64,000 nucleotides of DNA from an uncultured Acidobacteriota bacterium (GTDB taxonomy: Bacteria; Acidobacteriota; Terriglobia; UBA7540): the NCBI GenBank assembly GCA_963804995.1, contig CAWDSK010000001.1, positions 320,001-384,000 of the forward strand. The letters are read 5' to 3'. Positions 7,221 to 9,255 of the stretch are shown piece by piece; positions within the stretch are counted from its first letter, which is position 1; the number at the start of each line of letters is the position of its first letter. The position numbers were made by a program, and so were the translations under genes. The notes under the pieces are model-generated. The model worked only from the letters and a program-made list of their open reading frames with translations. It did no database searches and was not told the DNA's origin.

Positions 7221-7296
7221 GTAGGGGTACGGCTTGCCGTGCCCTCTGCATTTTTTATCGCGTGACCGAAGCAAGAGGGTACGGCAAGCCGTACCC
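7221..7296. repeat. REP doublet (GTAGGGGTACGGCTTGCCGT(G/A)CCCTC, inverted pair) whose right REP is interrupted by the IS
   Basis: Left REP at 7221-7246; right REP is restored by joining 7275-7296 to CTAC at 9145-9148. Confidence 0.85.
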
Positions 7297-7313
7297 TGGA
7301 GTTTTTACATTTA

Positions 7314-8693
7314 TTATGCATCAGCGGCGTGGGTGAGGGCGCGGTCGGTGAGTTGGAAGCCCAGAGATTGGGGACATTCCGGGTGGTCGACCATTTCTTG
7401 GCGCAGCAGGGTGACGAGGTCGAGGCAGGAAGGGCGGTGGGCCTTGCGTCGCCACCGGGGCAGAGCCTGATAGGCCGTGCCACGCTCGGTGCCGAAGGCT
7501 TGGAGAGAAGCCAGGAGCAGCGCGCTGTAGGCGGCCACGACCAGGGCAGGTTGCTTGGGCACGGCGTTAACGTTCCATAACTGGGCTTGTCCGACACCCA
7601 GCGTCTCCTTCTCGTCGCGGTGGTTGACTTCGATCTGCCAGCGGTCGAAGTAGATTTGCAGCAACTGAGGGGCAGAGTGCCGCAGGTCGGTGGTCAGCAG
7701 GTAGGCCGGTTGACGGTAGTAGAGTCTGGAGCTCTTCCGTTTGCGATAGGGGGTAGGAGCCACGACGAAGAGCCGCAGGGGGATCTGGCCGGCGCCCCGA
7801 CGCCAGTAGACTTGCGACACCTCTTTATAACGGAGGCGGCGGCGCTTGCCTCCGTAGAAGAGCTTGGTTTGCTGCCAGAGGTGGGACTCGTCCTGCCGGA
7901 CCTGTTCGGGGGTAAAGGTGGAGAGGGCGTAAAAGCGGCGAGAAGGCTGGGGAGCGCGAAAGCCGAGGCGCGCATCCTTGCGGGCGCGGGCGATCAACTC
8001 GGTGCGATCGCGGGGGGCGCGCAGACAGGTGCGGTTGCAGAAGCTGCCATCCAGAGCCAGCACCAGCAGCTTGGCCCCACCCCCGGCCGCATCCAGCGCC
8101 TGGCGCAAGGGGGCCACGCTCTGCACAAAACGCTGCGAGAGGTTGTGGAGCTTGCGCATCCTTTTATATTCCTGCCAGGCTTCCTCTTTCGCCTTGCGGG
8201 AGGGCTTTTTCAGCGGCGCCGCCTCTTCAAAGCGCACGGGCAGAGCGCGGCAGCTGGCGGGGGCGTGCCGATGCAGGGGCAGCAGCAGGGAAGCTTGCAG
8301 AAAGCGCACGCCGCGCAGGAGGTTGACATGAAAGGGGGGCGAGAGGGGATCGCGGTGATAACGCGCCTGGGGAATGGCGCGGCCGGTCTTGCGCAGGCGG
8401 GTGTCGTCGACGGCCACGCCCACCAGGCGGCCGGGACAATAGGGCAAGGCGCGGCGCCAGACGCCGGCAAACAACGTCTGCGGTTCCCAGTGACAACGCG
8501 AGTGGAGAAAGTATTCGCTCGACCAACTGCGCTGCTGGCGGCCCTGGGTCCAGAGGATACGCGAAAGACAGCGTCGACCCACGCAGACCAAGGCGCCCAG
8601 GGCCTGGCGCACGGCGCGCTGCAGGGTGCGCTGCTGGGGAAAAGTGGGGGCCCAGTCCGCCACGATCTCCGACCAGGCGGCGAACAGAGTCAT
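7314..8693 (-). CDS. DDE transposase (IS701/IS4-like)
   Basis: VAVDDT, LALDGSF and Y..RWQIE..HRDEK (YREK-type) motifs; bounded by TIRs. Confidence 0.88.
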   Translation of the reverse strand: MTLFAAWSEIVADWAPTFPQQRTLQRAVRQALGALVCVGRRCLSRILWTQGRQQRSWSSEYFLHSRCHWEPQTLFAGVWRRALPYCPGRLVGVAVDDTRLRKTGRAIPQARYHRDPLSPPFHVNLLRGVRFLQASLLLPLHRHAPASCRALPVRFEEAAPLKKPSRKAKEEAWQEYKRMRKLHNLSQRFVQSVAPLRQALDAAGGGAKLLVLALDGSFCNRTCLRAPRDRTELIARARKDARLGFRAPQPSRRFYALSTFTPEQVRQDESHLWQQTKLFYGGKRRRLRYKEVSQVYWRRGAGQIPLRLFVVAPTPYRKRKSSRLYYRQPAYLLTTDLRHSAPQLLQIYFDRWQIEVNHRDEKETLGVGQAQLWNVNAVPKQPALVVAAYSALLLASLQAFGTERGTAYQALPRWRRKAHRPSCLDLVTLLRQEMVDHPECPQSLGFQLTDRALTHAADA

Positions 8694-9025
8694 CGGGCCT
8701 CCGGACGTAAGCCGAAAGTGTTCTTCCCGGTACGCAGGAAGCGATCGCCGCGGGCGACTTTTTTGGTCAGCGAAGAGACCAGGCTCTCGCGATCGACGGT
8801 GACGTGGAAGGCGGCGCGGAGGCGCGCCAGGAGTTCGGAAATGTGCAAGGGGGTACGGGCCTTCTTGAGTATGTCGTACGCCATGTCCACTTGGGACAGA
8901 CCTGTGCGGCGCGGCCTCGGGGCGGGGGCTGGGGAACCGCCGCGGAGACGGCGAACCGCCCGCAACTGGGCATCCAGTGAGGCCTCGAATATCGAAAGAA
9001 TGGAATCCTTGAGATCGTCAGGCAA
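8690..9025 (-). CDS. Small winged-helix protein (HARE-HTH-like) carried by the IS
   Basis: AYDILKKARTPLHISELL...FLRTGKNTFGL pattern; GGAGG RBS before TTG; stop overlaps transposase ATG (ATGA). Confidence 0.75.
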   Translation of the reverse strand: MPDDLKDSILSIFEASLDAQLRAVRRLRGGSPAPAPRPRRTGLSQVDMAYDILKKARTPLHISELLARLRAAFHVTVDRESLVSSLTKKVARGDRFLRTGKNTFGLRPEAR

Positions 9026-9073
9026 GTTAACCTCCGGAGCCAGGACTCAGGAGGAAGGTAACGGAAATCAGGG

Positions 9074-9108
9074 AGGTCTGTCAATAGAAATCTTACTTTG
9101 CCAGACCT
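9074..9108 (-). promoter_or_regulatory. Inward IS promoter (-35 TTGACA) overlapped by an 11 bp inverted repeat
   Basis: AGGTCTGTCAA-13 bp-TTGCCAGACCT; minus-strand TTGACA at 9084-9079 with a TACCTT-like -10 downstream. Confidence 0.5.
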
Positions 9109-9255
9109 AAATGTAGAAACTCCAGGGTACGGCAAGCCGTACCCCTACATCCGAGTATTGAGTGTGAGGGGTCGCATCTGAACATTTGCGAGACCTGCTG
9201 GCCGTGGGACCACGCCAGCAGAATCCTGGCTAAAATCTCGTGAAGAAGGTGCACG

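Follow-up and report, generated by a model that had tools for sequence, protein, structure and literature searches.

The locus described here raises the question of how an IS comes to lie between two copies of an entire hairpin. The window, that is, the whole stretch of DNA analysed, comprises 64,000 nucleotides from an uncultured Acidobacteriota bacterium (GenBank assembly GCA_963804995.1, contig CAWDSK010000001.1, positions 320,001 to 384,000). Two REPs form an inverted doublet here, the second of which carries the IS, and the locus consists of the following features.

7221–7246, plus strand: first REP of the inverted doublet, GTAG followed by a 9-bp hairpin, with no IS insertion
7278–7295, strandless: left copy of the 18-bp target duplication (hairpin of the second REP)
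7296–7313, plus strand: terminal inverted repeat downstream of the transposase gene, 18 bp, complementary to the other end at 17 of 18 positions
7314–8693, minus strand: DDE transposase of 459 amino acids, with invariant D96, D215 and E355, the motif Y348-R351-W352-E355-K362 and a predicted Tn5-like fold
8690–9025, minus strand: accessory ORF of 111 amino acids, a putative winged helix (HARE-HTH or RpoE-delta-like, below cut-offs)
9108–9125, minus strand: terminal inverted repeat upstream of the accessory ORF
9126–9143, strandless: right copy of the 18-bp target duplication
9144–9148, minus strand: rest of the second REP, namely the final base of its stem and CTAC, which reads GTAG on this strand

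The 20-mer GGGTACGGCAAGCCGTACCC is present twice, at 7277–7296 and 9125–9144. No match to it was found in 100 shuffles even when up to 3 mismatches were allowed, which confirms the repeat abutting the terminal inverted repeats from which the initial annotation had started. That annotation left the length of the duplication at 16, 18 or 20 bp. All seven copies of the IS in this genome start with CTGGAG, six end with CTCCAG and one with CTCCAA, and their flanks vary. The relatives of the IS retain the same terminal bases, and position 9125 is the point at which the contig pieces of relatives stop in two public runs. These conserved ends between differing flanks indicate that the IS occupies 7296–9125 (1830 bp, ends CTGGAG) and that the duplication is 18 bp (7278–7295 and 9126–9143) and not 16 or 20 bp. 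That is, the hairpin is duplicated as had been proposed, except for its outermost G-C pair, which lies outside the duplication (perfect stem of 9 bp, offset −1).

Deletion of the IS and one copy of the duplication restores, as predicted, the inverse of the neighbouring REP: the restored site is identical to the reverse complement of 7221–7246 at 25 of 26 positions. The hairpin family of this REP occurs at 12 further genomic sites with up to 2 mismatches, and the 14 Y1_Tnp matches in the genome are a plausible source of the REPs. The insertion site is intergenic, with a TIM-barrel sugar isomerase-like gene on one side and a YCII gene on the other, and a promoter scan detected no promoter. An ortholog of the flanking gene is present in 27 of 28 relatives of the genus, with at most 78% identity; these genomes do not share the REP doublet and thus offer no orthologous empty site. 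No empty allele was found in 4 public runs, none of which covers the locus well.

The seven copies of the IS are 99.6–100% identical, and their duplications (18, 19, 21, 21, 21, 22 and 23 bp, with one mismatch in the 23-bp case) are seven different hairpins. In two of the copies small irregularities were seen: in G000:C5:393722–395567 (L220) the edge of the duplication is mismatched and CTGGAG follows the duplication directly, and in G000:C4:164504–166333 a terminal base is altered. Each irregularity is at the element end that lies upstream of the small ORF. A second IS of the same genome (1763 bp, 10 copies, transposase 41% identical) has an AbrB-like small ORF. Lacking the HTH ORF, it was taken as a negative control and failed as such, since it also targets hairpins. 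A hairpin was present at 9 of its 10 targets, and hairpin duplications of 18–27 bp flank eight copies. The remaining two copies (G000:C1:277249 and G000:C2:760069) have flanks exchanged across contigs, by rearrangement (recombination or intramolecular transposition) or by misassembly, and these flanks resolve into one 21-bp hairpin target and one 7-bp non-hairpin target. The latter splits a PIN-domain gene. In all five relatives examined this gene is intact and contains the 7 bases once, so the 7-bp non-hairpin case is real. Short duplications at non-palindromic sites in other copies had been named as the finding that would speak against hairpin targeting; none of the seven copies shows them, and the single 7-bp insertion belongs to the second IS.

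One copy of the second IS is inserted in a hairpin within the reading frame of a third IS. Thirteen intact copies of the third IS, which are true empty sites, carry the 21-mer once, together with its 30-bp flanks. This is direct proof of the duplication and also of the use of a target that is not a REP. All 16 hairpin targets in the genome come from repeated families, each with 1–82 further sites, and the most abundant hairpin families contain no insertions. Insertions into many different REP families, and one into a hairpin within another IS, show that the target is the hairpin and not the identity of the REP. Of the REP hairpin originally proposed as the target, the hairpin thus stood and the REP as such did not.

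For comparison, seven further IS families in the same genome that have clean duplications of 4–11 bp, a control set that left out the families with zero duplications (ends unrefined), adjoined hairpins at only 1 of 124 ends. These control families rule out that the association arises from selection favouring insertion in REP-rich intergenic DNA. Separately, a 1.9-kb repeat at G000:C1:233090–235037 and about 38 other places has no duplications and frequently adjoins hairpins.

We collected 182 elements, consisting of 80 of 178 genome-contig loci, 80 of 488 metagenome loci, 5 elements from related genomes and the 17 own copies. The genome-contig relatives were mostly from Acidobacteriota, and also from Hydrogenedentota, Armatimonadota and one Pseudomonadota. 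Recognisable ends were lacking in 42 elements, and 16 were located at the edge of a contig; 65 showed no duplication, and a duplication of at least 12 bp was present in 59. These 59 gave 56 distinct long duplications of 17–32 bp; sites that share a genome or a REP family do not count as independent. In 55 of the 56 we found a perfect stem of 6 bp or more, the one exception being L149 with a perfect stem of only 4 bp. Both edges of the duplication lay within 3 nt of the stem feet in 54 of 56, and the offsets at the two edges were symmetric in 54 of 56, compared with a pass rate of 0.47% for random genome positions in the same hairpin test. Structure-directed integration, as the initial annotation had suggested, is therefore supported by hairpins with matching edges in all seven copies, at 9 of the 10 targets of the second IS and in 54 of the 56 long duplications. 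L170 (G138), an AT-rich member, adjoins an AT-rich hairpin with its right end, which shows that targeting is not confined to GC-rich REPs.

Watson-Crick pairing was found at positions +2 to +8 in 51–55 of 53–56 sites, at +1 in 21 of 56 and at the outside positions in 9–15 of 56, and all four pair types occur at most positions. The first 9 nt of the arm were different in 53 of the 56 targets, which rules out site-specific recombination into a shared att site. Furthermore, the length of the duplication was correlated with that of the hairpin (Pearson 0.83, Spearman 0.62, slope 0.67): all six hairpins of at least 25 nt gave 25–32 bp, and 44 of 45 hairpins of up to 21 nt gave 17–23 bp. A fixed-length ruler is ruled out by the 17–32 bp range, by this correlation and by the 7-bp exception.

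We think, with a probability of about 75%, that the element is a recently expanded cut-and-paste-type DDE IS of a clade sister to IS701, which chooses its targets by structure through a cruciform or a comparable pair of hairpins. In transposition by a DDE enzyme, each 3' end becomes joined to the 5' edge of the future duplication. The edges follow the feet of the hairpin, symmetrically on both strands, and the arms vary in sequence and length; this is the pattern expected if a cruciform is attacked at its two 5' feet. The process may be considered as follows. The target palindrome would extrude as a cruciform (or equivalent paired hairpins), and each 3' transposon end would be joined at, or 1–2 bases from, the 5' foot of the hairpin on both strands. 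Gap repair would then copy the whole hairpin, so that the hairpin would set the length of the duplication. Each protomer probably grips about 7–8 bp of stem, with G preferred at +6/+7, fine-tuning the cut. Plain duplex DNA would receive rare insertions with a 7-bp stagger, and REPs would be targeted because they are the commonest suitable hairpins. What we observe is the footprint; from it we infer cruciform extrusion and the cut geometry. On this model, stems of 8–9 bp would have to extrude in vivo. The footprint suggests that the enzyme reads the shape of DNA.

Several features of the data stand against the cruciform reading: the slope is 0.67 instead of 1, the modal duplication is 21–22 bp, that is, two helical turns, the 7-bp target is no hairpin, the stem of L149 is short, and many elements have no duplication. 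Sequence also matters. Of the 56 sites, 43 had G at +6, 43 had it at +7 and 32 had it at both, which counts against a purely structural reading; the background for GG was 0–16 in shifted registers and 13–23% among genome hairpins. In this genome 11 of the 16 targets had GG, compared with 21% among REP-like hairpins (p = 5e-5, the sites being non-independent), and at the window site the cut one base inside the stem makes GG fall at +6/+7. Thus, a mild preference for GG at +6/+7 exists alongside the hairpin structure, which refines the earlier idea of structure-directed integration.

These same observations could be explained if the transposase recognised two inverted half-sites in ordinary duplex DNA (e.g., N5-GG on both strands, or with a host REP-binding protein placing the transposase) and cut with a stagger that varies around 21 bp; palindromy would then be a by-product of symmetric recognition and REP abundance. 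Besides the modal length and the frequent G at +6 and +7, the GG register explains several in-stem cuts (the window site, L001, L016 and L180), and REP-like repeats make up most of the targets of this genome. However, the lengths are continuous from 17 to 23 bp and on to 32 bp without helical phasing, positions that are not conserved are still paired, and GG is missing in 24 of 56 sites. A single element yields duplications of 19, 20, 27 and 30 bp (L016, L018, L041 and L017), the non-REP hairpin inside another IS was used, and the stagger outside a hairpin was 7 bp and not 21. We therefore regard recognition of duplex half-sites as quite improbable, and we prefer the choice of targets by structure.

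Of the 124 elements with both flanks readable, 65 had no duplication. Copies lacking a duplication nevertheless adjoined hairpins at 122 of 141 distinct flanks (null 1.1%). Flank swaps were demonstrated for L010/L011 and L075/L080 and account directly for few of these cases; the others may be adjacent deletions or collapsed assemblies. In L002, L033 and L050 the two flanks are mutually reverse complementary over 20–32 bp, as inverted REP pairs after deletion, an inverted duplication or an assembly artefact would appear. In L009, the terminus of a further copy lies in the left flank, 4 bases ahead of the hairpin, so that two copies lie beside one hairpin.

Many copies with a hairpin on each side and no duplication are what one-ended events or adjacent deletions would give, if the hairpin were read in transient single-stranded DNA (lagging-strand template or transcription bubble), one end being transferred at the foot and replication or repair finishing the insertion and copying the hairpin. 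Short GC-rich stems fold readily in single strands and extrude poorly from duplex DNA, which also counts for such a route. We consider it unlikely, however, since the equal offsets at both edges in 54 of 56 are those expected of a symmetric two-ended attack, no orientation bias was seen relative to the GTAG/GTGG foot of the REP (8 left and 8 right of 56), and the predicted structure has the fold of a dimeric DDE enzyme like Tn5 transposase.

The preferred reading assigns the choice of target to the transposase. An alternative is that the accessory winged-helix protein locates the hairpin. An HTH ORF, whose look-alikes are HARE-HTH, is indeed present in 77 of 80 close relatives, and in 57 of these it is coupled to the transposase start by ATGA, as in the window, where the stop of the 111-aa ORF overlaps that start. 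However, the other 3 of the 80 have a DUF6788 ORF instead and still adjoin hairpins, a second subgroup that includes the second IS has an AbrB-like ORF and likewise hairpin targets, and a DUF6788 ORF also precedes an outgroup element with a 4-bp CTAG duplication. Since three unrelated accessory ORFs accompany the same targeting, the choice of target probably resides in the transposase, and a guiding role of the accessory protein seems highly improbable. The transposase alone would presumably be sufficient, and as a guess the small ORFs are regulatory. In the AbrB subgroup (G000:C1:277250–279012; L168–L170, L174, L180–L183 and L202), the frames of the small ORF and the transposase overlap at a stretch of 8–10 A in all 10 elements examined. 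The transposase frame lacks a clear independent start, and the two are probably fused by a −1 frameshift.

Tn5 transposase has Trp at the position like that of W352 and excises through a hairpin-type step, and by this analogy cut-and-paste chemistry may be expected of the present enzyme. Its structure model (pLDDT 96.7) matched Tn5 transposase best (E 2.7e-11, TM 0.54), and D96, D215, E355 and K362 are invariant in 79 homologues. The Y348-R351-W352-E355-K362 motif has the IS4-family spacing Y(2)R(3)E(6)K, and the first DDE spacing of 118 is slightly larger than the 60–110 given in the IS4 description of PMC2266710. The best profile for the transposase was the NCBIfam IS701 model NF049999, with 132.5 bits under a cut-off of 170; L043 also remained under it (143.7 bits), and outgroup elements scored 294–310 bits against the IS701 model, the three tested passing the cut-off. 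IS4 models gave the window protein 23–37 bits (cut-offs 115–250), and a profile search found no IS1182-type transposase domains in it or in the 79 alignment members. The pattern YFDRWQIEVNHR(D/E)EK was found in 17 of 17 HTH-group rows. The tyrosine position of YREK is F in 5 of 6 outgroup rows; patterns such as those of L083, with Y, and of L171 occur too, which blurs this feature.

In a 37-row tree, the hairpin elements and five end-less homologues formed one clade with 100/100 support, sister to six IS701_3-type elements that have 4–5 bp CTAG/CTNAG duplications and no hairpins. This tree, which included no IS4, ISH3 or other IS701 subgroups, was rooted at its midpoint and carried a long-branch warning, so it does not fix the direction of change. 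By the tests run, the clade lies outside IS30, IS1182 and IS4 and probably outside IS701, and in this tree it is sister to IS701 elements. The family is broad, with 447 clusters at E < 1e-30, and the best plasmid matches are about 25% identical. A search for the ends of the 28–40% relatives L164–L167 and L173 (G115, G232 and G103) found no terminal repeats; they occur at 1–3 per genome, L164–L166 share a similar upstream context, and they are possibly domesticated transposases nested in the hairpin clade.

The long duplication, which the initial annotation had considered unusual, is so when compared with the 4–5 bp of the IS701-type outgroup, but it is less unprecedented than was implied, given IS1630 and the model for the IS1182 family. 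Some IS1182 members, as Siguier et al. are said to have reported in 2015, duplicate the whole structure. The passages on IS1630 (Mycoplasma fermentans, IS30 family) in PMC3317919 and PMC2853133 describe duplication of a whole hairpin, 16–26 bp in length. As in the window clade, this long and variable duplication is a target inverted repeat of variable sequence; IS1630, however, has an IS30-family transposase and an AT-rich host, whereas here we found GC-rich REP-type hairpins, two ORFs and CTGGA ends. IS1272 (IS1182 family) likewise has hairpin targets, for which the accounts in PMC5678879 and PMC4923244 give no primary sequence consensus. Unlike the window clade, it deletes the hairpin and makes no duplication according to these accounts. 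The window clade fits pathway b in Fig. 13 of PMC5678879, in which attack at the 5' feet of a cruciform is hypothesised to duplicate the whole stem-loop.

The IS701 family is nearest by profile and tree, and the ends of the outgroup element L195 (CCTGGAG) are near-identical. In the family descriptions of PMC2266710, IS701 has 4-bp duplications, a YREK Tyr that is mostly absent and a length of 1400–1550 bp, whereas the window clade has duplications of 17–32 bp (7 bp once), the full YREK and a length of 1730–1900 bp. IS4, with duplications of about 10 bp and a single ORF in the same descriptions, shares the DDE triad and Y(2)R(3)E(6)K with our clade but differs from it in ORF number and duplication length. 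ISRm22 (IS4), ISPsy8, ISPa11 and ISPpu9/10 have every copy within REP elements in the part of PMC1525189 devoted to them. Such REP-targeting ISs are described there as using one REP family at a fixed point, with a duplication of 0–6 bp and a conserved consensus, in contrast to the many hairpin families and the whole-hairpin duplication seen here. Our literature search found no description of this hairpin-duplicating, IS701-related clade; most subscription papers, supplements, TnPedia and ISfinder were outside its scope, so an earlier description is possible. Taken together, the comparison suggests that whole-hairpin duplication, already known in a few unrelated ISs, is apparently new for the IS701-sister lineage.

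We speculate further, at somewhat less than even odds, that a DDE transposase has switched from a 4–5 bp duplex target to a four-way junction, cutting diagonally at the feet of the cruciform like a junction-resolving enzyme and measuring about 7–8 bp of each arm. The clade would then be an unnamed family sister to IS701, and its enzyme a natural structure-programmed integrase as well as a recorder of the palindromes that extrude in living cells.

The literature has not settled how long and variable duplications arise from DDE transposases: PMC2266710 states that there was no model for IS1549/IS1634, and PMC5678879 presents the cruciform model as a hypothesis. The present clade offers dozens of natural targets, a sister group with short duplications and an exceptional 7-bp insertion in duplex DNA, and this makes the model directly testable. 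For the element itself, insertion into a REP hairpin leaves an intact hairpin on both sides, which is a low-harm strategy, and an integrase directed by shape is a possible tool.
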